A stretch of DNA of 64,000 nucleotides, from positions 8,186 to 72,185 of the forward strand of contig SFKS01000001.1 of the NCBI GenBank assembly GCA_004554705.1, in the 5' to 3' direction. A model generated the notes under the pieces. That model searched no databases and was not told the origin of the DNA. It saw only the letters and a list, made by a program, of their open reading frames with translations. Origin of the DNA: Clostridiales bacterium (GTDB lineage: Bacteria; Bacillota; Clostridia; TANB77; CAG-508). How positions within the stretch are numbered: the first letter of the stretch is position 1; every line of letters starts with the position of its first letter. Below, piece after piece: positions 1-12,005 of this stretch. The position numbers and the translations under genes are program-made.

Positions 1-1
1 G

Positions 2-409
2 GATCCTGCTGCATTACATAAGCCAAAAAGATTTTTTGGTGCAGCAAGAAATACTGAAGATGCAGGAAGTTTGACTATCTTAGCAACCGCACTTGTAGAA
101 ACAGGAAGTAGAATGGATGATGTTATATTTGAAGAGTTTAAAGGAACAGGTAATATGGAGGTTCACCTAGATAGAGCTTTATCAGAAAAACGTATATTCC
201 CTGCAATTGATATAAACAAATCTGGAACAAGAAAAGAAGAACTGTTGCTTTCAAAAGAAGAACTAGAAACAATATTTGCTTTAAGAAAAACAATGTCAAA
301 TATGAATACACAAGAAATGACTGAACAAATTATGGAACAAATTGTAACAACAAAATCAAATGCAGAATTTTTAGAAAGAGTAAATATATTTTTAAAAAAT
401 AATAAATAG
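2..409 (+). CDS. rho: Transcription termination factor Rho, C-terminal part (5' end cut by the window edge)
   Basis: The frame is open from position 2. The translation ...[70 protein letters not shown]... matches the conserved Rho ATPase C-terminus. Confidence 0.9.
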
Positions 410-435
410 ATTAGCGAAATTATACTTGTAAGTGA

Positions 436-478
436 GTAGGGAGAGGAGAAAACAATACAAAACTTCTCTACTTGTTTA
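436..478 (+). terminator. Imperfect stem-loop GTAGGGAGAGGAG...CTTCTCTAC just downstream of the rho stop; candidate rho terminator
   Basis: An inverted repeat is seen 27 nt after the rho stop codon. The stem is imperfect and the U-tract is weak. Confidence 0.35.
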
Positions 479-644
479 CAATGCAACATTGCACAAAATC
501 AAAGTTTTGTGCAAAAAGGAATAGGAGTCAAAAAGAAAGTACCCATTTCAAGTACCTCCTCTCAAAATCAGCTATTCCTTGCTATTAGCTTATTTCAGCT
601 ATATTTTATAGACAATAAACTACATTACTTTTATATAAAAACTC

Positions 645-991
645 CTTAAAATCGATTCTGGAGCTTCAATATTTTGTGTTATGCCTGGTTGGATTTTTTT
701 TCATTATTGTAACTACATTTTTAAAAAAATTTTATATAACTTTAGATTATTTTATCAAAATTTCCTAAATCCTTAATTTTAAGTATTTTGCTTAATTTTT
801 TATCGATTCTCGTGCGTCGTTTTTTTAGCCATTTTTCAGCATTTTTAAAAAGTGCCTAAAATTAAGCATTTCTATAAGAATTACATTATAATTATTATAT
901 TTTATAAATTGAACATTAAAATTCAAACATATAACTTGTTAGATAAAATATTAAAATGCCTTAAAATTGATTTTGGTGCGTCTATAATATG
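645..991. repeat. Three to four degenerate ~30-bp direct repeats (consensus CCTTAAAATYGATTYTGGWGCKTCWATAWT) at ~157-bp spacing in an ORF-free region
   Basis: Full copies sit at 645-674, 796-819 and 958-991, with a shorter related copy at 854-882. The copies are about 75-85% identical. No ORF longer than 60 aa is present in 420-1168 on the + strand. Confidence 0.6.
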
Positions 992-1168
992 AAATTATAT
1001 ATTTGTTTTTCTTAATTTTAATGCTTCTAACATATAATTATCACCACCTTTTAAAATACAAATTACTATTTTATCTCTAATTCATATGTATAAAAAATCA
1101 AAAAAATTATACATGTTTTCAAAATATGTATAATTTTTTATGAATTTTGACAACTTACTATTTATCGT

Positions 1169-2239
1169 TTAATAATTTATTTTTACAATCCATTCTCCAT
1201 TTTTCTTTGAGTTTATTCTTTCTATCAATCCTTTTTCTTGCATTTCTCCCATATATTTTTTAACAGTTCTTAATGATTTGTTAATTTTATTGGCGATTTC
1301 TTCTTGAGTTATAGAAGGTTTTGCCTTAAGTATATTAATAATTGCCTGTTCTTCCAAAGTACAATTATTTACTTTTAAATCATCCTTATTTTCATCTTGA
1401 ATATAGTCGATATGTGTATATCTGTTTTTTAATTTATTATTACTACCTGTAAGTAAATTATAAAAAAATTTTTCTAAATATGATATATCTTCAAAAATGT
1501 TTTTTTCAAAGTTTTTGTAATTAGCTCTTACTAATGAATTTCTAAAATACCATGAATTATCTGCAAAAACTTCATCATTGATATTAAACCCAAATGTTCT
1601 TAAATATTTTATTATAAACACTGCTGTAGTTCTTGTGTTGCCTTCACAAAATGGATGTACTTGCCATATGTTTGAAGTAAATCTACATAAATGTTTTATT
1701 GACTCTTCTAACCCTAGATCTTTATATGAAAAATTTCTTTCTTGTTCAAAATCATACTCAATAGTATCTTTTATTGTTTCATATGATGAATATATTACTG
1801 TATCTCCATTTAATACCCATTCTTTTTTTGTAAAATTATAATCTCTATATTTTCCTGCTGTCCTTAATATTCCTGTAAATAATCGTTTATGAATATTTAA
1901 CAATTCTGTTATAGAAAAGTTAAATGCTTTTTCACTTAATATTTCTGTTATTCTAGTAGCTACCTTATCTGCTTCTTCACTTTCTTGTTCAAAATCTTTT
2001 CTGCTATTTTGTACTTCATAATACTCATTTATTCTTTTTTTTACTTCTTCTATATTAATTTTTCCTTCAATATGTTCTTTTGCTGTTTTTATTAGATATT
2101 TTGATGGTTTTAATCCATCTACATCTTGAAGTCCTATTGCTGTTTCCCACACTTTTGTTTTTTCTACTTGAGTTGGCTCGCCTTGTTTAATATATTCAGA
2201 TAATTCTAAATTCCAATCTTTTTTCTTATCCATAACCAA
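1169..2239 (-). CDS. Fic/DOC family protein with a C-terminal winged-helix DNA-binding domain; the Fic motif is noncanonical (HPFCEGNTRTTA)
   Basis: The Fic core motif HPFxEGN is present, but T replaces the second G and A replaces the final R of the canonical HxFx(D/E)GNGRxxR. The C-terminal ~70 aa resemble a MarR/wHTH fold (…LRTVKKYMGEMQEKGLIERI…). Confidence 0.8.
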   Translation of the reverse strand: MVMDKKKDWNLELSEYIKQGEPTQVEKTKVWETAIGLQDVDGLKPSKYLIKTAKEHIEGKINIEEVKKRINEYYEVQNSRKDFEQESEEADKVATRITEILSEKAFNFSITELLNIHKRLFTGILRTAGKYRDYNFTKKEWVLNGDTVIYSSYETIKDTIEYDFEQERNFSYKDLGLEESIKHLCRFTSNIWQVHPFCEGNTRTTAVFIIKYLRTFGFNINDEVFADNSWYFRNSLVRANYKNFEKNIFEDISYLEKFFYNLLTGSNNKLKNRYTHIDYIQDENKDDLKVNNCTLEEQAIINILKAKPSITQEEIANKINKSLRTVKKYMGEMQEKGLIERINSKKNGEWIVKINY

Positions 2240-2288
2240 ACCTCCTACAAATATAATTATACCATAATTTCAATATAATATCAAATTT

Positions 2289-2331
2289 AAAGTGCAAGTT
2301 TTGCACTTTATTTTTAAAAACATTGCACTTT
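2289..2331. promoter_or_regulatory. Perfect palindrome AAAGTGCAA-gtt-TTGCACTTT plus a third TTGCACTTT half-site 22 bp downstream, in the fic upstream region; putative operator
   Basis: The palindrome sits 50-90 bp upstream of the fic start. The same half-site recurs at 4087-4128 and 5503-5544. Confidence 0.5.
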
Positions 2332-2442
2332 AAAATATTTGTTCTAATTTATTATATAATATTCCCGTATATACTTCATATCCTCTTCTTAGTAATTCAA
2401 TTGCAACCATATTCTCATATCTTAATGACGTTCTATTAGATA

Positions 2443-3273
2443 TTAATAAATTGAAATATCCTTAACTTCTTGTTCTACTCCTGTTAAATCTAGTTTTCCA
2501 TTCATTCCATTAAATACGATAGGAAATGTTTCTTCAAAACCATTACATTCAAATTTTATACACAATTCTGGTGTAGTTGTTTCTGCTAAATAGTTATCTA
2601 AGATAATAAATGGAGTTGTATAATTTTTAATTAAAGTGTTATCTAATTCTAATTCTCCTTGTTCATTTATAAAACAACTATATAAAGTTATTTTCACATC
2701 TTCTGATTTTGGAATTATTACAAAGCGATTTCCTATTTCCTTTTCTCTACTATCAGCTGATCTATAATCTAATACTTCTAAATTATTATATGTATAATTA
2801 TTGTGAAAATTATTATGTATGAATTCATCAATATTACTATCTAATACATAACCTATTGCTAAACATTGATTATCATTGAAATTTATAGTTGTTCCATTTG
2901 TTGTATTAACTTCTACAGCTTTACCCTCAAGAAAATCTACTACATCTCCAGAAATAGTATCTAATGCATAACCTGTTTCATCATCAAATCTATAATGAGC
3001 AACTTCTTCATCATTCTCATCATAGACAATTGCTATAAATTCACTGCTTTCGTAATAGCAATAAATATCTTCTGGATCACAATTGTGATATTGACTTATT
3101 TTTTCTTGCCACCCTCTTACAGTCATACATTTAAATTCTACTGAATCTTCATATATCATTCCGTCTTTATCTGGAACAAACATAAAACATTTAACATAAA
3201 TTATTGCACATATTACACATATCGCTATTCCTATTAAAATACCAATTATCACTTTTTTCATTTTAGCCCTCAT
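2443..3273 (-). CDS. Hypothetical membrane-anchored protein (N-terminal TM/signal anchor, Cys-containing extracytoplasmic domain)
   Basis: The 276-aa ORF has the hydrophobic N-terminus KKVIIGILIGIAICVICAIIYV. No recognisable catalytic motif was found. Confidence 0.5.
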   Translation of the reverse strand: MRAKMKKVIIGILIGIAICVICAIIYVKCFMFVPDKDGMIYEDSVEFKCMTVRGWQEKISQYHNCDPEDIYCYYESSEFIAIVYDENDEEVAHYRFDDETGYALDTISGDVVDFLEGKAVEVNTTNGTTINFNDNQCLAIGYVLDSNIDEFIHNNFHNNYTYNNLEVLDYRSADSREKEIGNRFVIIPKSEDVKITLYSCFINEQGELELDNTLIKNYTTPFIILDNYLAETTTPELCIKFECNGFEETFPIVFNGMNGKLDLTGVEQEVKDISIY

Positions 3274-3295
3274 TTTCTTTTAATCTTTATTGTAT

Positions 3296-3341
3296 AAAAA
3301 GGAATAAAGAATCATTGCTAAAAGTGTCTTTATTCCTTTTT
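3296..3341 (-). terminator. Rho-independent terminator (AAAAAGGAATAAAGA ... TCTTTATTCCTTTTT)
   Basis: A 15-bp stem is flanked by an A-run and a T-run, directly after the stop codon of the 3347-3877 gene. Confidence 0.6.
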
Positions 3342-3346
3342 ATATA

Positions 3347-3877
3347 TTATTCAACTGAAAATGTTAAAGTATTTAATATATTTTGAACAACTTCTGAATC
3401 AAATGCTGCTTTTACTTCTTCTTGATTTGATGACATAATGTCTTTTGAATAAACACATAATGATGCATATACAGTATCTGATACAGGCAATACAACTTTA
3501 TATGTATCATATCCAGCATAATAATAAGAGAATCCATTAATTCCATTATATGTCACTTCTTTATATTCTTCATCATCTTTATGTTCTTCTTTTAAATTAT
3601 TTATATTTTCGCCACTCCAAAATTTATCAAATTGAATTGTAATGTTAAAAGTATCTCCTTTTAATATTGCATCATTACGAGATGTTCTAAAATCCTCTTC
3701 GTTAGTTGACAAAGTATAATTAGCTCCTTCTTCAAAACTTAAATTTATTGTTGCTTTTGTATCTTCATCATCCTTAAATGAAACTGTTTCAAGTTTTCCT
3801 TTTCCACATCCTGTTAAAGCAACTACGCTCATTGCTAAAATAGCAAAAATTAATATTATTGAAACTATTTTTTTCAT
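3347..3877 (-). CDS. Putative lipoprotein
   Basis: Signal peptide with lipobox ...VVALTGC; 176 aa with no conserved domain recognised. Confidence 0.55.
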   Translation of the reverse strand: MKKIVSIILIFAILAMSVVALTGCGKGKLETVSFKDDEDTKATINLSFEEGANYTLSTNEEDFRTSRNDAILKGDTFNITIQFDKFWSGENINNLKEEHKDDEEYKEVTYNGINGFSYYYAGYDTYKVVLPVSDTVYASLCVYSKDIMSSNQEEVKAAFDSEVVQNILNTLTFSVE

Positions 3878-4080
3878 ATTTTCCTCCTTTCCAATTATAT
3901 TATTTATATCAAATTTTTTTGAATTTGAATAACTACTTACTGTGTGTCTATTTTCTCTTTCAATTCTGAAATTTAATAGTTTTTTTCTTCTACATATCTA
4001 TCCTTTCTTAAGATATTACATATTTTAAATTTTGTTTCACTTTTTTTATAATTCTATTATATATTTTTTAAAAAGACATC

Positions 4081-4133
4081 GTCCCTGAGGTGCAAATTTT
4101 TGACTTTTTTTGCCCCAAAAGTGCAAATTTTGT
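4081..4133 (+). repeat. Copy A of a ~50-bp repeated element carrying two AAAGTGCAAAT-like half-sites 31 bp apart
   Basis: Sequence gtccctgaGGTGCAAATttttgactttttttgccccaAAAGTGCAAATttt. It is about 90% identical to copy B at 5495-5547. Confidence 0.7.
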
Positions 4134-4166
4134 TAATGCTCAGTAGTTCTAATTAAAATTGTATAA

Positions 4167-4209
4167 AATATTGTAGGGGCGCCCTTTGGGCGTCCCTACA
4201 ATATTTTAT
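4167..4209. terminator. Strong GC-clamped hairpin AATATTGTAGGGGCGCCC-ttt-GGGCGTCCCTACAATATT followed by a T-run
   Basis: The palindrome has 18-nt arms. A GC-rich core is unusual in this AT-rich intergenic DNA. It lies between divergent genes, so it is not an ordinary gene-end terminator. Confidence 0.55.
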
Positions 4210-4293
4210 GACCTACTAAACATTAACCAATTTTTTATATTGTCTTTTATTTTTCTCTATTTTGTGATAAACTAGATGTATCGTTGATAGGAG

Positions 4294-4938
4294 GTGTTTT
4301 TTTTGTATAATATTATTGTAATAGATGATCATCAAATGTTGAGAGATATGATTTCCGAAACATTAAGTGCCCAAGATGATTTAAATGTTGTTGCAACTTC
4401 TGGAAATGCTAAAGATTCTCTTGAGCTATGTAAAAAATTGAATCCAGATTTAGTATTAATGGATGTGTGTACTGAAAATAATTCAAATGGAATTGCATAT
4501 TCTAAACTTTTAAAAAAACAGTTTCCTAATGTAAAAGTTATTATTATGACAGGTATTTTGGATTTGAATTTTATAAATGATGCAAAAGAGGCTGGAGTTG
4601 ATAGTTTTATATACAAAAATATTAGTAAAGACTCGCTTATTATGACTATAAAAAATACTTTAGATGGATATTCTATGTATCCTAATGATAAAAATAATTT
4701 GTCAAAAGATAATATATTATCTAATTTAACAGATTCTGAATTAAAAGTTTTAACTTTATACTGCAAATTATTAGATAGAGATGAAGTAGCAAATAAACTT
4801 GGAATATCTGCAAGGACACTAAAATCTCATATTTCATCTATTTATGCAAAAACAGGTTATGACAATTTAGCTAAACTTTCTGTTTATTGCGTATCTAATG
4901 GTTTAATTGTTCCTAACCTTGAATCACCTGAAGAATAA
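4294..4938 (+). CDS. Orphan NarL/LuxR (FixJ) family response regulator; the likely true start is TTG at 4303
   Basis: The receiver domain has DD at the N-terminus, the LVLMDV phospho-acceptor Asp, a conserved T, and K in SFIYK. The C-terminus carries a LuxR-type HTH (SELKVLTLYCKLLDRDEVANKLGISARTLKSHISSIYAKTG). The RBS AGGAGGTG lies 6 nt before TTG at 4303. No histidine kinase is adjacent. Confidence 0.8.
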   Translation: MFFLYNIIVIDDHQMLRDMISETLSAQDDLNVVATSGNAKDSLELCKKLNPDLVLMDVCTENNSNGIAYSKLLKKQFPNVKVIIMTGILDLNFINDAKEAGVDSFIYKNISKDSLIMTIKNTLDGYSMYPNDKNNLSKDNILSNLTDSELKVLTLYCKLLDRDEVANKLGISARTLKSHISSIYAKTGYDNLAKLSVYCVSNGLIVPNLESPEE

Positions 4939-4972
4939 AATAACTGCTATTTCTAGCAGTTATTATTTTTTC
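4939..4972. terminator. Bidirectional rho-independent terminator (AATAACTGCTA-tttc-TAGCAGTTATT + T-run) between convergent genes
   Basis: A perfect 11-bp stem overlaps the stop codon of the minus-strand gene. U-tracts are present on both strands. Confidence 0.7.
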
Positions 4973-5448
4973 TTATTAAATATCTTTTCTAAAAAATCAC
5001 GAATACTGTTAATCTTGTTTCTTCTTATTGTGTAATCAGCATAAGTTCCTTCTTCTATCATCCTTTCACGATTTTTCGTTAACATATCATCTCTTTTGTC
5101 ATTTATAATCCTATTAGCAGTATCTTTTAAAGTGTCTTTAGCTATTTCTGCTCTGTTTTCATATAAGATATCCTTAGCAATTTTTACAGACTGTTTTTTT
5201 TCTTCTTTTGTCATTTTTTTTGCTTTTGGTGTGCATTTTGATACTAGCGTATTAAATCGGTTTAACAATTCTGATGTAGAAAATTGCTGTTCAAATTCTG
5301 AAGCACTACTACATTTCTCACCTAAAGCCTGTGTATCTTTAATAAACATATCCATTTCTGATTTTAAATCATCTGGAACAGAAAAATAATCTTCAAAAAA
5401 GTTAATTTTTGCATCTACACAATTTTTTACTTCATCTAACATAAGCAT
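4963..5448 (-). CDS. Hypothetical protein (161 aa, charged/helical); the likely start is Met3 at 5442
   Basis: This is an ORF call only. The RBS GAAAGGAG is 7 nt from the second ATG. Repeat copy B lies in its promoter region. Confidence 0.5.
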   Translation of the reverse strand: MLMLDEVKNCVDAKINFFEDYFSVPDDLKSEMDMFIKDTQALGEKCSSASEFEQQFSTSELLNRFNTLVSKCTPKAKKMTKEEKKQSVKIAKDILYENRAEIAKDTLKDTANRIINDKRDDMLTKNRERMIEEGTYADYTIRRNKINSIRDFLEKIFNKKK

Positions 5449-5494
5449 ACTCCTTTCATTATTACATTATACCATTATATTATTTCTTTTTGCA

Positions 5495-5547
5495 TTGTCC
5501 TTAAAGTGCAAATTTTTACTTTTTCTTGCCCCAAAAGTGCAAATTTA
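5495..5547 (+). repeat. Copy B of the ~50-bp AAAGTGCAAAT-bearing element
   Basis: Sequence gtccttaAAGTGCAAATttttactttttcttgccccaAAAGTGCAAATtta. It sits 50-100 bp upstream of the 4963-5448 gene start. Confidence 0.7.
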
Positions 5548-5828
5548 AATATTGTTGTAATACAGAAAGATTTTGCCCTAGTAAATCGTGATATTTATTT
5601 TTTATTTTAAGTAGGTTTTTCTCTTTTTCTAGTTTTTCTATATTTTCTATACTTGTTACTAGTTCTGTATTATTAAGTTTTATTTTTTCATTTTGTTCAT
5701 CTAATTCTTTTTTTAAGCAATATTCTTCTGTTATATCAAATGCTATTACTTCATTTTGGTTAATAATAAATAGGTAATATTTTTACTACTTTGTCAACAG
5801 TCTGAAATATAATTATTTAATATCTTTT

Positions 5829-7413
5829 TTATCTAGATTTTGGTCCTTCGCCAATAGTTGTATCTACATTATATAAAAGTGGTTCATAAACTGTTCCTAC
5901 AAACCAAATAGTTCCATCTTCTTTGTCTCTTATTAAAAACATATATGGTTTATCAAAAGTTAAATCGATTTCTTCTACAGGTACATCGTATAAATAGTCA
6001 AAAAAGCTTCCTGCTCCTGCTCCACCTATCCATGTTGCTGCTGCTGCTTTTATACCATCTTGTGTAAATTCTATATTTGCTTTGTGACCAGCGTCTGTTA
6101 TATATGTATCCTTGTCATCACAAATTCCAGTTAAATTTGCTTTCCCTTCTTCAAAAATATTAGTTATTCCTAATTGTTGTAGGTCTTTTTTTAGGTTTAG
6201 TTCATATTCAAATTTAAATTTTGGAATATATCCTGTAATTTTTGTTACTACTCCAGATTTAAAATTTTCTACTTTTAAATCCTTTAGTTTATTTATTATA
6301 TTATCTATTTCTGCTTTATCTATATTTTTAATATAGTTATCTAAATCCTCTGTTGTTGGCATTATACCAATATATTGTAATGTTGTTCCATTGTATTCCT
6401 TTAAATCCTTTGCAAATACTTTGATGTTATTATCTACATATATAGAAAAATCTGTGGTATAATCTACTCTCTTATAATTTGAGTTTATTGCTGGAATATA
6501 TGTTTCTAAATATTTATTTGCTTCTTCTTCTATATTACTATCTGTTAAATCTTTATTACAATACTGCTTAAACTCTTCTTCACTTATACTTTTTGCCCAT
6601 TTTTTAAATTCGTTTTTCACGGTTTCTCTTATATTTGCTTCACCTATTTCTTTAACTATATCATAGTTATTTATAGATGCTATAATTTCCATACCTGAAA
6701 CCTTTTGAGAGTTTTCACCAAATTTATGTTCCGTAGGGTTTTCTGGTCCTACCCAGTAAAATTTTTCGTGTTCATAGAAACATTCTACCGGGCGTCCGGG
6801 TTTTTATAAATTTATCTTCCCAGTCCATATCTATTGCTAGTGCATTTATCAACATAAAGACCGTATTCTTGTCAACTTCTTCAAATAAGTCCTTAATTAA
6901 ATTTAATGTTTTATTGCTTACCCAAGAGTTAAGATTTTCTGGGCTTGAGAAAGAATCAACTTTAACTTCAGCGTTATATTTGGTTTTTAATGTACTTATA
7001 TAACTATTTTTAATTTTATTTTCATATGAATCCTTTGCAAATAATGCATTGGCAAAAGCCATATTGCTATTTGAGTTGTATTTTTTTAAGGTTTCATTTC
7101 CTAGTACATTAGAAATTTGTAACTTTGATTCACCTTCTGTGCCTTCTTCTAGCATTTTTAATGCATATTTTATTGATAGTGGACTATAAATCTTGTTTGC
7201 TTTTTGATTCTCCATCTTTAAAAACTTAATATCAAAATTTGAAGTATCTCCTTTTATGGTTTCTTTGTTCTCACTCTCATTTTTAGGTGGATTTGCTAAT
7301 ATGTCAGTATTTGTTGTTTTGTTGTTACATCCTGTTAATAAGATAGTCATTAGCAATACCAATGCTGTAATTAAAATTTTTTCAAAAAATTTCTTCATTC
7401 TAAATTCCTCCAA
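5829..7413 (-). pseudogene. Serpin (serine protease inhibitor) lipoprotein gene disrupted by a frameshift near 6786-6803
   Basis: The N-terminal ORF 6772-7413 has a lipoprotein signal (LLTGC) and serpin N-terminal motifs (KIYSPLSIKYALKML, NSWVSNKT, VFMLINALAIDMDWEDKF). The C-terminal ORF 5829-6692 has a serpin reactive-centre-loop/hinge (GIKAAAATWIGGAGAG) and C-terminal signature (FDKPYMFLIRDKEDGTIWFVGTVYEP). The two ORFs join in one reading frame across a single-base shift at the GC-rich site CCCGGACGCCCGG. Confidence 0.75.
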
Positions 7414-7547
7414 TTATTTTTATAAATTTAAACTATAGTTAAATTTTATATTATATGTATTTTTTTGTCAATAAAAAGCAAAAAATTTTAAATAATTTTA
7501 AAAAAGTATTTTAAAATTATAAATTATATTATATAAATATATATGAG

Positions 7548-8543
7548 GTGTTATTTATGATTGATCGTAAAGAAAATCCTGAATTTCTTAATTCTTTTTT
7601 AGATTATACAATTACTATACTTAATAAATCTCCCAATACTATTAAAGAATATAATTATGATATATCAAACTTTTTAAAATATATAAAAAAAGAATTTAAA
7701 TTATCTGAAGAAAAAAATATAAAGAATATTAAAATAGATGATATGGATATTTCTGTACTTAAAAAAATTACTCTTCAAGATATTCATGGATATATTTCAT
7801 ATATGGCAAGAGAGTTTAAGAGTACTCCTGCTACACGTGCAAGAAAAATATCTTCTCTTAGAGTGTTTTTTAAGTATCTTACTAGTAAAGCAAAATTACT
7901 TGAAGTAAATCCTGCACAAGATTTAGAAACGCCCAAACTTGGTCGTAGAATGCCAAAATATTTGTCTCTCGAAGAAAGCAAAAAGCTTCTAGAGGTAACT
8001 CAAAGCCAAGACAATAGAAACAATATAAGAGATTATGCAATTATAACTTTATTTTTGAATTGTGGTATGCGTTTATCTGAATTAGTTAATATTAATATAA
8101 GTGATATAGATTTATCAGAAAGTAAGATGACAGTTATAGGTAAAGGTAATAAGGAACGTACTATTTACTTAAATAAAGCATGTATGAATTCTATTAATGA
8201 TTATTTATCTATTAGACCCCATGATAAGGTTAAATTTGATTCTCGTGATGCACTATTTTTAAGTGAGCGTAAAGAAAGGATTAGTAATAGAACTGTACAG
8301 GATATTGTAAAAAAAGAGCTAAAAAAAGCTGAATTAGATATAAAAAAGTATTCTGTTCATAAATTAAGACATACTGCTGCTACACTCATGTATCAATATG
8401 GTAATGTTGATATCAGAGCTTTGCAAGAGCTTCTTGGACATGAAAGTATTTCTACTACTGAAATATATACGCATGTAAATAATGAAATAGTAAGAAATGC
8501 TGTTGAGAATAACCCTCTTGCAACGGAAAATAGGAAAATTTAA
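7548..8543 (+). CDS. Tyrosine site-specific recombinase (phage-integrase/XerC-like); the likely start is ATG at 7557
   Basis: The C-terminal catalytic region is HKLRHTAATLMYQYGNVDIRALQELLGHESISTTEIYTHV (R...HxxR...Y). The RBS GAGGTG is 6 nt before ATG at 7557. Confidence 0.85.
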   Translation: MLFMIDRKENPEFLNSFLDYTITILNKSPNTIKEYNYDISNFLKYIKKEFKLSEEKNIKNIKIDDMDISVLKKITLQDIHGYISYMAREFKSTPATRARKISSLRVFFKYLTSKAKLLEVNPAQDLETPKLGRRMPKYLSLEESKKLLEVTQSQDNRNNIRDYAIITLFLNCGMRLSELVNINISDIDLSESKMTVIGKGNKERTIYLNKACMNSINDYLSIRPHDKVKFDSRDALFLSERKERISNRTVQDIVKKELKKAELDIKKYSVHKLRHTAATLMYQYGNVDIRALQELLGHESISTTEIYTHVNNEIVRNAVENNPLATENRKI

Positions 8544-8571
8544 GAGACAGTGAGATATATCTCTCTGTCTC
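8544..8571. terminator. Inverted repeat GAGACAGTGAGATAT/ATCTCTCTGTCTC between the convergent integrase and SH3b genes
   Basis: The hairpin has a 13-nt stem. The minus strand carries a U-rich tract, so it likely terminates the SH3b gene. Confidence 0.5.
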
Positions 8572-8579
8572 TTGCCAAC

Positions 8580-8915
8580 TCAATCACCATCACCAAACGA
8601 AAGTCCCTTTACGGAGACCCATCCATATTGGGTCTCCACCCAATACGGATGGGGGCCGTCCATATACTCATACCTCCTTCCGGTAAGATACACTGTATCT
8701 CCAAAATACAGTTCATCTATGATTTCCGAGTTTAACCCCGGGCTTGCACGGACGTTTAACCGCTCATAAGAGACGGTTGCACTTTTCCCTACAGATTCGG
8801 GGTTATACTTTTCCCCGAATTGGGAAAAAAGGAGGATTGTGCTTCCGATGACAGCTACAACTGTCAAACAAAAGCTGAAAAATTTCCTTTTGTTTGTTAT
8901 TCTGTACTTTTTCAT
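8580..8915 (-). CDS. Membrane-anchored bacterial SH3 (SH3b/SH3_3) domain protein, GC-anomalous
   Basis: The ORF has an N-terminal TM/signal segment and an SH3b-like core (SYERLNVRASPGLNSEIIDELYFGDTVYL...GWVSVKGL). It is about 45% GC against about 27% for its neighbours. The RBS is GGAGAAAG. Confidence 0.7.
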   Translation of the reverse strand: MKKYRITNKRKFFSFCLTVVAVIGSTILLFSQFGEKYNPESVGKSATVSYERLNVRASPGLNSEIIDELYFGDTVYLTGRRYEYMDGPHPYWVETQYGWVSVKGLSFGDGD

Positions 8916-9091
8916 ATAGTTTCTTTCTCCAACTTAGCGTTAGGTAGTTGGCACCTTGCGGGTCAGACCTATTATACTCTGCCCTAGTAACTATTTACTT
9001 ACTTATATTATACTATTATTTATGTCAAAATGCAAATTTAAAGGAAATAATCTCTTTTATTAAAAGAAGGTTATTTCCTTTTGCAGTAGCC

Positions 9092-9388
9092 TTAGATTAT
9101 TGGAATCATTAATTCTTGGTCAATATGCAAATTGCTTGATTCTAAATTGTTTGTATTTTTAATATCAAAAACTATATATCTAATATCTTTGTTTTTATAA
9201 TAATCATTGCTTGTTTGTAAATCACTTGCAATACTCCATAAAGTATCACCTTTTGAAACTCTTATAGTTGTATATTCAGTTTCTTTATGTGAAAAAGTGC
9301 TTTTTGCACATATAGTGGATAATGCAAAAACCATCAATAGAATACAACATATACTTTTTATAAATTTCTCAAAATTAACTATTTTCAT
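9092..9388 (-). CDS. LysM-domain membrane protein, YneA-like putative SOS cell-division inhibitor (start taken at the internal ATG at 9388)
   Basis: Signal/TM segment FIKSICCILLMVFALSTICA followed by a LysM domain (YTTIRVSKGDTLWSIASDL). The RBS GGAGG is 7 nt before ATG at 9388. The upstream TTG-initiated extension in the ORF track overlaps the promoter -35 element. Confidence 0.7.
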   Translation of the reverse strand: MKIVNFEKFIKSICCILLMVFALSTICAKSTFSHKETEYTTIRVSKGDTLWSIASDLQTSNDYYKNKDIRYIVFDIKNTNNLESSNLHIDQELMIPII

Positions 9389-9402
9389 ACATTTACCTCC
9401 TG

Positions 9403-9457
9403 CGAACAATATTTCGCTCGCTAAGTATATTATAAACGCTTGTTCGTAATTTGTCAA
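9403..9457 (-). promoter_or_regulatory. Consensus sigma-A promoter (TTGACA-17-TATAAT) with two LexA (Cheo) boxes
   Basis: On the minus strand, TTGACA is at 9457-9452 and TATAAT at 9434-9429. Box 2, CGAACAAGCGTTTA (9446-9433), overlaps the spacer and -10. Box 1, CGAAATATTGTTCG (9416-9403), sits between the TSS and the RBS. Both match GAAC-N4-GTTC closely. Confidence 0.7.
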
Positions 9458-9522
9458 TAGTTTTTTTGAAAAAATTTAGTTTTTTTAGAAAATGTTGTTA
9501 TACACGGAAAAATCCTGGTATA

Positions 9523-9550
9523 CAATAAAAAAGACAACGCTTGGTTGTCT
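9523..9550 (-). terminator. Rho-independent terminator of xerD (AGACAAC-gcttg-GTTGTCT + U-run)
   Basis: The hairpin lies 13 nt downstream of the xerD stop, followed on the minus strand by TTTTTTATT. Confidence 0.7.
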
Positions 9551-9562
9551 CTACATAAAATT

Positions 9563-10444
9563 CTATGCTCTTGGATGAGCTTTTTTATATATATTTTTTA
9601 AACTATCATCTTGAAATTGCATATATACTTGTGTTGAAGATATGTCTGAATGTCCTAGCATACTTTGAATTGATTTTAAATCTGCACCATTTTGCAATAA
9701 ATGAGTTGCAAAAGAATGTCTTAATACATGTGGTGTTATTTCTTTTGATATATGGGCTTGTTCTTTATAGTATTTTATTATTTTCCAAAAGCCTTGTCTG
9801 GTTAGCCTTTTTCCATTTACATTTACAAATAATGCTTGTTCATTATCATCTTTTATCATATTAAGTCTAGCTGTTTCCATATATTCTTGTAAAGCATGTA
9901 GTGACATTTTGCCTAAAGGGATTATTCTTTGCTTATTTTCTGTCTTACAGGTTACTGAAGAATTTGTTAAGTCTATATCGCTAATATTTAAAGATATAAT
10001 TTCAGTAACTCTCATACCTGTTGCATATGCAATTTCTAACATTGCTTTGTCCCTGATGCTTTTTAGATCTTCTCCTTTAGGTTGGTCTAATAGTAATGAT
10101 ACCTCTTGAGAAGATAAAACACTAGGTGCTTTTTTTTCTATTTTAGGAGATTGAATACCTTTTGTAGGATCTTCTTTAACTATTTTGCTTTTTGCTAAGT
10201 ATTGATAGAACAGCCTAATTGACGCTAGGTGTCTTGAAATTGTAGAAGATTTTTTGTTTATTTTATGTAGATACTCTAAATAGTTTATTATATCTTCATT
10301 TTTTACGTTAACATAGTTAATATTATTTTCTATTATATATTCTTTATATTGTAAAATATCTCTTTGATATGATTCTAATGTGTTCTTTGATAGCTTTTTA
10401 TCTACTTTTATAAATTCTAAAAATTTTTTTATATCTTTATCCAT
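9563..10444 (-). CDS. xerD: Tyrosine recombinase XerD-type (chromosome dimer resolution)
   Basis: The C-terminus HVLRHSFATHLLQNGADLKSIQSMLGHSDISSTQVYMQ closely matches the XerD/RipX signature. The N-terminal core-binding domain has ...QRDILQY... . Confidence 0.8.
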   Translation of the reverse strand: MDKDIKKFLEFIKVDKKLSKNTLESYQRDILQYKEYIIENNINYVNVKNEDIINYLEYLHKINKKSSTISRHLASIRLFYQYLAKSKIVKEDPTKGIQSPKIEKKAPSVLSSQEVSLLLDQPKGEDLKSIRDKAMLEIAYATGMRVTEIISLNISDIDLTNSSVTCKTENKQRIIPLGKMSLHALQEYMETARLNMIKDDNEQALFVNVNGKRLTRQGFWKIIKYYKEQAHISKEITPHVLRHSFATHLLQNGADLKSIQSMLGHSDISSTQVYMQFQDDSLKNIYKKAHPRA

Positions 10445-10528
10445 TTTTTGATCCCCTTCGTAAACATAATTTCATGGTATAGTTATATCAAATAAACATA
10501 AAAATGTAAATAGATTTTTAAAATATTC

Positions 10529-11932
10529 TTAAAAATTTTTTTCTCCTTTTAAATACCATTTATGCTCTGAGGCTATTTTTACTTCTATCACTTGTCCTAC
10601 AAGGCTTTTAGAGCCTTCAAAATTTACTATTTTGTTTGTAGTTGTTCTTCCTGTTAGCATTTTATCATTATTCTTGCTTGTGCCTTCTACTAATATTTTT
10701 TGAATTGTTCCGATATATTTTTTATTATTTAATTCAACTTGCTTTTCAAATAATTCTTTTAATCTATCAAATCTCTTGTGCTTAATTTCCTCTGGTATCT
10801 GACTTTCCATTTTATCTGCTGGGGTTCCCTTTCTTCTTGAATATATGAACATAAATATTTGCTCAAAATTAACTTTTTTAACAACATCTAGAGTGTCTTG
10901 AAAATCCTTCTCGGTTTCTTCTGGGAAGCCTACTATTATGTCTGTTGAAAATACTGCTTCTGGTATTTCTGTTTTTATTTTGCTAACTAATTCTAAATAT
11001 TGTTCTTTGGTATATTTCCTATTCATTTTTCTTAATACTTCTGTACTTCCAGACTGTAAAGGTAAATGAATCAGTCTTGATACCTTTTTACATTCTTTTA
11101 TTGCTTGTATTACATCTTCTGTAAAATCTTTTGGATGTGGAGATATAAATTTAATAACCTCGATTCCTTGAATTTTATTTACTGCTCGTAATAAGTCTGC
11201 AAATGAAGTTATGTTGTCACTTCTATTTTCTTTTTTCTCTGTTCTCATATATGAATTTACATTTTGACCAAGCAATGTTACTTCTTTATACCCTTCTTTT
11301 GATAATTGTTCTATTTCAGCTATTATGTCTTCTGGATTTCTGCTTCTTTCTCTTCCTCTTACGTATGGAACAATGCAGTATGAGCAGAAATTATTACAGC
11401 CATACATGATTGTAACAGAAGCAGATTTATTACTATTTCTTTTTATTGGTAATCCTTCATATATTTCTCCATCTATATCTAAAATATCTTTTATTTTATT
11501 CTTTTCAGATATAACTTTATATAAATCTTCTGGAAACTTATGTAAAGTATGTGTTCCAAATATGATGTCGATATATGGATAGCTTTCTTTCAATTTGTCC
11601 TGCATATGTTTTTCCTGCATCATACATCCGCATACTGCAATTATACTATTATTTTTTTGCTTTATCTTTTTAAGTTCACCAACTTTACCAAATAGTTTTT
11701 CTTCTGCATTTTCTCTAACACAGCAAGTGTTTAGAATATAAATATCTGATACAGTTCCATTTTTTGCAGGTTTATAGCCCATTTCTTCTAGCATTCCTGC
11801 AAGCTTTTCAGAATCATTTTCATTTAATTGGCATCCCATTGTTAGTATATTATAATATTTTTTTTCATTTTTCATCATTTCTTTTACTTTTCTAATATAT
11901 TGTATTTGTTCTTCTATTACTTCTTTATTCAA
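10529..11932 (-). CDS. miaB: tRNA-2-methylthio-N6-dimethylallyladenosine synthase MiaB (radical SAM methylthiotransferase)
   Basis: An MTTase N-terminal domain (ILTMGCQLNENDSE), the radical-SAM CxxxCxxC motif (CNNFCSYC) and a C-terminal TRAM domain are all present. Confidence 0.9.
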   Translation of the reverse strand: MNKEVIEEQIQYIRKVKEMMKNEKKYYNILTMGCQLNENDSEKLAGMLEEMGYKPAKNGTVSDIYILNTCCVRENAEEKLFGKVGELKKIKQKNNSIIAVCGCMMQEKHMQDKLKESYPYIDIIFGTHTLHKFPEDLYKVISEKNKIKDILDIDGEIYEGLPIKRNSNKSASVTIMYGCNNFCSYCIVPYVRGRERSRNPEDIIAEIEQLSKEGYKEVTLLGQNVNSYMRTEKKENRSDNITSFADLLRAVNKIQGIEVIKFISPHPKDFTEDVIQAIKECKKVSRLIHLPLQSGSTEVLRKMNRKYTKEQYLELVSKIKTEIPEAVFSTDIIVGFPEETEKDFQDTLDVVKKVNFEQIFMFIYSRRKGTPADKMESQIPEEIKHKRFDRLKELFEKQVELNNKKYIGTIQKILVEGTSKNNDKMLTGRTTTNKIVNFEGSKSLVGQVIEVKIASEHKWYLKGEKNF

Positions 11933-12005
11933 TTTCTTATCCTCCTAAAGTAAAACACTATTAGTTATTATAACATATTTATATCTAGTTTTACAATAAA
12001 AAGAA

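Follow-up and report, generated by a model that had tools for sequence, protein, structure and literature searches.

What do two near-identical 54-bp elements do on either side of a response regulator gene and the small gene that converges on it? The question is raised by contig SFKS01000001.1 of a Clostridiales bacterium, of which a stretch of 64 kb, hereafter the window, was analysed; statements about this genome refer to that stretch. The original prediction saw in the two elements (copies A and B) either an autoregulatory operator pair defining a small regulon or the ends of a small inserted module, at a GC content of about 27% (the window has 28.5%). Judging from sequence, we consider it likely that copies A and B represent a single response-regulator-dependent promoter in duplicate, each firing on the minus strand. 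The parts concerned are these.

4077..4130, minus strand: copy A (repeat family D6, shared layout), putative composite operator-promoter of site 1 and site 2, facing a 176-aa lipoprotein gene
4110..4126, minus strand: site 1A, distal palindrome TTGCAC TTTTG GGGCAA, 0 mismatches, predicted centre ~-74
4079..4095, minus strand: site 2A, proximal degenerate palindrome TTGCAC CTCAG GGACGA, 31 bp from site 1A, predicted centre ~-43 to -45
4051..4061, minus strand: candidate -10 boxes of copy A, TATAAT (4061-4056) and TAGAAT (4056-4051), read from sequence, predicted start ~4044-4049
5493..5546, minus strand: copy B (repeat family D6, pattern match), putative composite operator-promoter facing a 159/161-aa gene
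5526..5542, minus strand: site 1B, TTGCAC TTTTG GGGCAA, 0 mismatches
5495..5511, minus strand: site 2B, TTGCAC TTTAA GGACAA, 1 mismatch, 31 bp from site 1B
5466..5474, minus strand: candidate extended -10 box of copy B, TGGTATAAT, from sequence and promoter scan, 23 nt from site 2B, predicted start ~5459
4303..4938, plus strand: NarL/LuxR-type response regulator gene (Pfam; TTG start at 4303), located between the two copies, its product the putative binder of the sites

The pair is real. In ungapped alignment copies A and B are identical at 46 of 54 positions (85%), and slightly above that when two compensating 1-nt indels are admitted, so that the earlier figure of about 90% was a little generous. 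They are direct repeats 1416 bp apart and form the sole convincing repeat family in the window, none other exceeding ~80% identity at such length. The core TTGCCCCAAAAGTGCAAATTT is identical in both, and exact matches to AAAGTGCAAAT at 4118, 5503 and 5534 and to GAGGTGCAAAT at 4087 confirm a start-to-start spacing of 31 bp within each copy, as first described. Counting both strands, the window contains the 8-mer AAGTGCAA ten times, where shuffles give 4.24 +/- 1.9; six of the ten fall within 2290-5542, where ~0.22 would be expected (Poisson P ~1e-7). The clustering that had been noticed by eye stands. The other four occurrences (8777, 53675, 60197 and 60245, the last two inside a coding open reading frame, ORF) are at background level, and, as a correction, three of the clustered six (2290-2330) are part of a separate element 5' of a Fic gene. 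The regulator start is 172 nt downstream of the end of copy A, and 45 nt separate the 161-aa ORF from copy B upstream of it. An Rfam search of window positions 1-12000 returned nothing near the element or the hairpin described below, all matches being far under gathering scores.

The unit of the element, which had been described as direct half-sites, is a 17-bp imperfect palindrome, TTGCAC-N5-G(G/T)GCAA. It is present twice per copy with centres 31 bp apart (~three helical turns), and in the L083 clade (comparison loci are cited by L number) both sites are near-perfect palindromes, TTGCAC TTTTG GTGCAA and TTGCAC CAAAA GTACAA. This is a dyad-symmetric site within the ~16-20 bp suited to a helix-turn-helix (HTH) dimer, and GerE-type HTH domains bind dyad sites as dimers. 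On the minus strand copies A and B have the same layout, in which 14 nt separate the two palindromes and TG directly follows site 2, and the layout recurs in 15 further non-redundant instances. In the resulting stack of 17, the columns of site 1 are the most conserved; conserved columns comprise the hexamers, the TTTTG centre of site 1 and an AAAT preceding site 2. The degenerate form of site 2, GGAC(A/G)A, is also found in L078, L079 and L098.

The position of the element relative to the -10 box is equally regular. Next to proximal site 2 comes a poor -35 region, and the -10 box is in many cases an extended one (TGnTATAAT); among the 17 stacked instances, 12 measured by eye have an aTGnTATAAn box 20-23 nt past site 2. 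Distance and orientation to the -10 box are in this sense fixed. In copy A the candidate boxes lie 17 and 22 nt from site 2A, the figure for the 17-instance stack being 22 +/- 1 nt, and copy B has a second TATAAT at 5479-5474 in addition to its extended box. A sigma-54 promoter was also considered by eye and rejected: TTGCAC-N5-GGGC is without the GG of a -24 box, and an enhancer-binding protein is absent.

The genes that the two copies face, and the terminator between the convergent pair, are as follows.

3347..3877, minus strand: 176-aa predicted lipoprotein gene, first gene downstream of copy A (ORF call)
2443-3273, minus strand: 276-aa membrane protein gene behind the lipoprotein gene (ORF call)
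4963..5448, minus strand: 161-aa ORF for an all-helical protein, putative target of copy B (ORF call)
4939..4964, no strand assigned: bidirectional terminator hairpin between the convergent regulator and 161-aa genes (terminator scan)

Copy A had been paired with the regulator gene. In this genome it faces the minus-strand lipoprotein operon, and its predicted role is that of the promoter of that operon (3877 downward), not of the regulator gene. In L098, L113 and L118 an orthologue of the 176-aa lipoprotein (94% identity) has a copy of the element to itself, 97 nt upstream, and in L121 the same element is found 212 nt upstream of the lipoprotein ORF; neither Pfam nor NCBIfam has a family for the protein. 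From the copy A promoter to the lipoprotein start codon (window 3878-4050) the leader is ~115 nt longer than in L098 (775-945) and L118. On the other side, the true start of the 161-aa ORF is probably the ATG at 5442, giving 159 aa, because the ribosome-binding-site spacing is right for it and gene callers use this form (P0001), which is found on 220 contigs. The 161-aa protein has no Pfam or NCBIfam match; its AlphaFold2 model is of moderate quality (predicted local distance difference test score 69), and Foldseek found no PDB structure matching it at E<1.

Across genomes, equivalent promoters next to regulator homologues (67-95% identical) have kept the element while their flanks diverged. 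Six strains of the same species (L063-L068, reached via the 159-aa protein) have both copies in the same gene order. In L078-L082, where the homologue of the 161-aa protein is 73-83% identical, the element is found in two places. The first is between the regulator gene and a divergent operon starting with a DUF4428 gene; the second is directly 5' of the 164-aa homologue gene in L079-L082 and, in L078, 5' of a 162-aa gene that precedes a 165-aa homologue. The equivalent of copy B in L079 stands directly after the kinase gene, as an internal promoter. Where the regulator is 69-77% identical (L083-85, L088-91) the element occupies the regulator-divergent intergenic region, and in L131 (67% identical) it precedes a convergent operon. 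Tandem sites are present in all loci fetched via 161-aa homologues that carry the regulator (L063-68, L078-82) and in most of those fetched via regulator homologues (L083-85, L088-91, L131); the more distant 161-aa homologues with no regulator (L069-L077) have no site.

An exact metagenome scan for TTGCACTTTTGGKGCAA-N14-TTGCAC matched 39 loci, four of which represent an unrelated region of higher GC upstream of gcvT. In all of the remaining 35, which are low-GC, the element is upstream of a gene and oriented toward it. The genes so faced encode lipoproteins, membrane-anchored proteins of 278/340 aa and secreted proteins of 1300-1570 aa; in L098 the 1574-aa surface protein gene beside the regulator has one copy as its putative promoter, and a second copy, 5.6 kb away, would drive the lipoprotein orthologue. 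A regulator homologue starts ~80 nt away, divergently, at 27 of the 35 loci (the rest are contig-end cases or second promoters), and the regulator gene is the sole DNA-binding gene to recur as a neighbour. Element and regulator gene thus co-occur across genomes. A viral contig collection gave 0 matches. A scan of genome contigs used a gap of 22-24 nt, where the true gap is 20 nt, and was blind to the element; its 61 matches are wrong-spacing background, although the Fic- and XRE-type palindromes described below came to light among them.

As a separate observation, the higher-GC loci L094, L104, L105 and L115 have TTGCACTTTTGGTGCAA-N14-TTGCAC ~350 nt upstream of a gcvT-like aminomethyltransferase gene, with no regulator homologue nearby.

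Because of this association, and of precedent in the family, we infer that the protein which binds the sites is the adjacent regulator. Its sequence matches both Response_reg (PF00072, E=5.6e-20) and GerE (PF00196, E=7.7e-8, above gathering score), so that it has the receiver domain and the C-terminal tetrahelical HTH of the NarL/FixJ (LuxR-type) class. D9, D54, T83 and K105 are invariant in an alignment of 8 homologues, and the acidic pocket is intact. Among solved structures VraR and LiaR come closest (E ~1e-27), with full-length structure matches to VraR, DevR, DesR and NarL. A further hint may come from L086 and L087, which have a variant half-site. In L086 this is TTGTCC, with the 31-bp phasing kept, and the recognition helix of the L086 regulator differs by R171S, S175T and I177V. 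Such co-variation of half-site and recognition helix, a single case, possibly points to the regulator as binder.

The regulator was described as an orphan. In relatives its gene is convergent with genes for a ~502-aa HisKA_7TM membrane protein and a ~380-aa HisKA_3-type kinase, the latter with an H-box (KNKYHDLLGQNLS), an N-box and a NarX/UhpB-like ATPase domain; this seven-transmembrane (7TM) protein and kinase pair is intact in L098 and L114, where the regulator is 94% identical. The window holds only a trace of the kinase.

5543..5782, minus strand: pseudogene remnant of the cognate HisKA_3-type histidine kinase (tblastn)

The remnant comprises 80 codons, corresponding to residues 153-232 and including the H-box KNKYHDLLGQNLS, and is 91% identical to the 378-aa kinase of L079. 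Stop codons precede it, and its end falls exactly at copy B. Because the deletion junction has AATATTT in common with the natural 3' end of the kinase gene, the sequence suggests that the kinase was lost by microhomology-mediated deletion. The regulator is indeed an orphan in the window, but it was not born one: comparison with relatives indicates that it is so only through decay of its kinase. In strain L067 (9900-9937) a 1-nt deletion (CCCC to CCC) lies centrally in site 1 of copy B and would leave a palindrome spacer of 4 nt; either the site has decayed since the kinase was lost, or the deletion is a homopolymer assembly error.

We propose the following mechanism. The regulator would bind each palindrome as a dimer; occupancy of the strong distal site would help to fill the weak proximal site on the same helix face; and the filled proximal site would touch RNA polymerase and switch the promoter on, in a class-II-like activation. 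Copy A would drive the genes for the 176-aa lipoprotein and the 276-aa membrane protein, and copy B the 159/161-aa gene. The regulator probably acts as an activator at both promoters; activation is proposed because the site centres, counted from the -10 position, fall near -43 and -74.

Several points weigh against this proposal. (i) The distance from site 2 to the -10 box hinges, in both copies, on the choice between two overlapping -10 candidates. (ii) L133 and L134, with a regulator 71% identical, have no element in 8 kb and 4.6 kb of DNA, respectively. (iii) Many of the supporting loci are closely related, and their counts are not independent events. (iv) With the cognate kinase reduced to a fragment and site 1B altered by deletion in L067, the switch may be decaying or constitutive. 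(v) The search of this genome covered 64 kb, and the regulon may be larger.

The first of these points gives an opening to a repressor or dual regulator, which would occlude the -35 region rather than recruit polymerase. Were the upstream TATAAT (5479-5474 in copy B, 4061-4056 in copy A) the real -10, site 2 would be only 15-17 nt away, its right half (GGACAA/GGACGA) would be the -35 hexamer, and loss of the kinase in this species would simply de-repress the targets. We find repression or dual control improbable, however, since the conserved aTGnTATAAn of the 17-instance stack, ~22 nt past site 2, puts the sites at ~-43/-74, upstream of the polymerase footprint, at promoters without a good -35, and the homologous ComA, LiaR and VraR activate from such an arrangement.

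The palindromes might also belong to another protein, for example the product of the Fic gene, which includes a winged HTH (wHTH) domain, or another regulator recognising AAAGTGCAA. Three occurrences of that 9-mer precede the Fic-wHTH gene at a distance of 1.8 kb from here, and similar GTGCAAA...TTTGCAC palindromes are found in other Clostridia at promoters without the regulator. The two kinds of site are built differently, however: the regulator-type site is TTGCAC-N5-GTGCAA, with TGCA cores 11 bp apart, whereas the Fic-type site, GTGCAA-N3-TTGCAC, is everted. In loci of relatives that have the tandem element, none of the called genes is a Fic gene, and at 27/35 loci it is the regulator, alone among DNA-binding proteins, that recurs. 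We give a different binder little credence.

The Fic-side cluster (2289-2331) had been counted among the same 8-mer occurrences. Because its TGCA cores are 9 bp apart rather than 11 bp and its half-sites face the opposite way, 2288-2331 is probably an operator in its own right, one that serves the Fic gene and is not of the regulator-associated type. It consists of the everted palindrome AAAGTGCAA-AAC-TTGCACTTT and a further half-site 22 nt upstream, and borders directly on the -35 of the promoter of the Fic-wHTH gene; a Fic orthologue in an Erysipelotrichaceae metagenome-assembled genome (MAG; L018 1744-1793) is likewise preceded by this arrangement.

A related palindrome, GTGCAAA(T/A)TTTGCAC, was seen in Clostridia MAGs in two copies 33 bp apart (L016 1669-1716, L026 5654-5701, L034 6250-6297 and L044 ~400-440). 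These pairs overlap the -35/-10 of operons with an XRE-type HTH gene and, after it, a HepT/DUF86-like gene, which are toxin-antitoxin-like, and they look like autorepression operators.

That the direct repeats are the ends of a small inserted module was the second half of the original prediction. Such a module would carry the regulator and 161-aa genes and might be excisable, its ends being att-like or those of a miniature inverted-repeat transposable element (MITE) or insertion sequence. The repeats do bracket exactly two genes, and tyrosine recombinase genes lie 2-5 kb away. No recombinase or transposase is encoded between the copies, though, and the nearby recombinase genes, which look like chromosomal genes of the XerC/D type, are in the same place in all six strains (L063-L068), one of them recurring in a related species (L079). 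In L098 and L114 both copies are on one side of the regulator gene, before two different targets; in L079 the equivalent of copy B directly after the kinase gene is placed as an internal promoter; and every copy has a -10 box facing a gene. All six strains have both copies, with no empty site. We hold a module very unlikely. A dispersed repeat, the outcome named in advance as fatal to the operator reading, fares no better, with two copies in 64 kb, related instances at promoters near the regulator and the 0 viral matches given above. Chance or neutral duplication of functionless AT-rich intergenic DNA, for which the low GC content and the many weak repeats of the window might be invoked, is scarcely worth entertaining given the unique length and identity of the pair and the 8-mer statistics, and is excluded by the conservation of hexamers and 31-bp phasing across species whose flanks cannot be aligned.

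The reading of copies A and B as response-regulator-dependent promoters retains the operator pair and small regulon of the original prediction, since the element stands at equivalent promoters beside regulator homologues in related species. Its autoregulatory part finds no support in this genome. Two further features of the intergenic region bear on this.

4263..4271, plus strand: the regulator gene's own candidate extended -10 box, TGTGATAAA, an invariant block in a 5-species alignment
4136..4231, no strand assigned: ~96-nt insertion with a 22-bp perfect GC-rich hairpin (4163-4209), absent from L098, L100, L079 and L078 in the alignment

In the 5-species alignment the element, the regulator promoter and the leader are conserved blocks amid diverged DNA. 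Autoregulation is not indicated here because copy A faces the lipoprotein operon, the regulator has its own -10, and the 96-nt insertion separates the two. In relatives site 1 is ~43 nt upstream of the regulator's conserved extended -10, and the element could there also serve the regulator promoter from roughly -63; autoregulation is possible in those species. The hairpin folds with a dG of -38.3 kcal/mol (z = -8.6), and the window contains no further copies of the insertion, which may represent a small mobile palindrome or a bidirectional terminator acting as an insulator.

Other irregularities were seen in the neighbourhood. The serpin gene at window 5829-7413 (minus strand) is split into a 213-aa N-terminal and a 287-aa C-terminal ORF, and all six strains, L063-L068, share the split; either a frameshift or stop has been conserved, or the gene is genuinely made in two parts. 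In the same strains the region from Fic to rho (window ~410-1170 and beyond) is variable. Some have an extra Fic_N/SoFic-like gene, and in other strains a 1096-aa DEAD/ResIII helicase and a 158-aa partner replace the rho-proximal DNA. The stretch resembles a small hypervariable island and may be a defence island.

What the element may mean goes beyond the window. We suggest, tentatively and at somewhat less than even confidence, that the motif defines the regulon of an uncharacterised system of 7TM protein, HisKA_3 kinase and LuxR-type regulator in uncultured spore-forming gut Clostridia, and that the window species keeps the regulator and both operators in use after decay of the kinase. If so, the system appears to target lipoproteins, DUF4428 proteins and secreted surface proteins of giant size (1300-1570 aa), and continued use of the operators would imply control that is kinase-independent or cross-wired. 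We found no description in the literature of a TTGCAC/GTGCAA response-regulator motif or of this system, and HisKA_7TM only in survey-type work on archaeal and eukaryotic histidine kinases. The analysis provides a concrete motif and a target list for an unnamed two-component system common in human-gut metagenomes, ties that system to proteins of the cell surface and envelope, among them very large secreted ones in relatives, and records a regulator that has outlived its kinase.

The understanding of how response regulators act is unchanged by this. The kind of switch is ordinary, a standard response-regulator operator-promoter, while the particular motif is undescribed. At the lux box, a palindrome for a GerE/LuxR-type dimer is centred in the low -40s beside a poor -35, in a single 20-bp box with a ligand-activated regulator. 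The present element resembles this class II arrangement in its palindrome, predicted to lie in the low -40s, and its poor -35; it differs in having two sites 31 bp apart and a regulator of the phosphorylation type.

A second counterpart is ComA of Bacillus subtilis, which recognises TTGCGG-N4-CCGCAA plus a degenerate proximal site (PMC4797271). Common to both are hexamers that start with TTGC, an inverted repeat upstream of the polymerase site, and a second degenerate site nearer the promoter (PMC4797271). The HTH of the regulator is of the same tetrahelical GerE class. The differences are in spacer and hexamers (N4 with TTGCGG/CCGCAA in ComA, TTGCAC-N5-G(G/T)GCAA here), in the proximal site, which in ComA is a direct repeat close to the inverted repeat and here lies 31 bp away centre to centre, and in the sensor. 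No ComP, ComX or ComQ genes are present here, and relatives have a 7TM protein with a separate HisKA_3 kinase.

LiaR and VraR are the closest solved homologues; at E ~1e-27 the match does not mark the regulator as an orthologue of either. Neither the window nor close relatives have an adjacent LiaF-type partner, as a LiaFSR/VraSR operon would, and the sensor architecture differs. The half-site T(X)4C is matched by TTGCAC, whereas the full LiaR box, T(X)4C(X)4G(X)4A, becomes T(X)4C(X)5G(X)4A here, with one extra central base. LiaR protects ~43 bp, made up of a consensus palindrome and a weaker secondary site that is filled on a switch from dimer to tetramer (PMC4482077). The element described here likewise pairs a palindrome with a weaker secondary site, and its apparent targets, like those of LiaR and VraR, are envelope or surface proteins.

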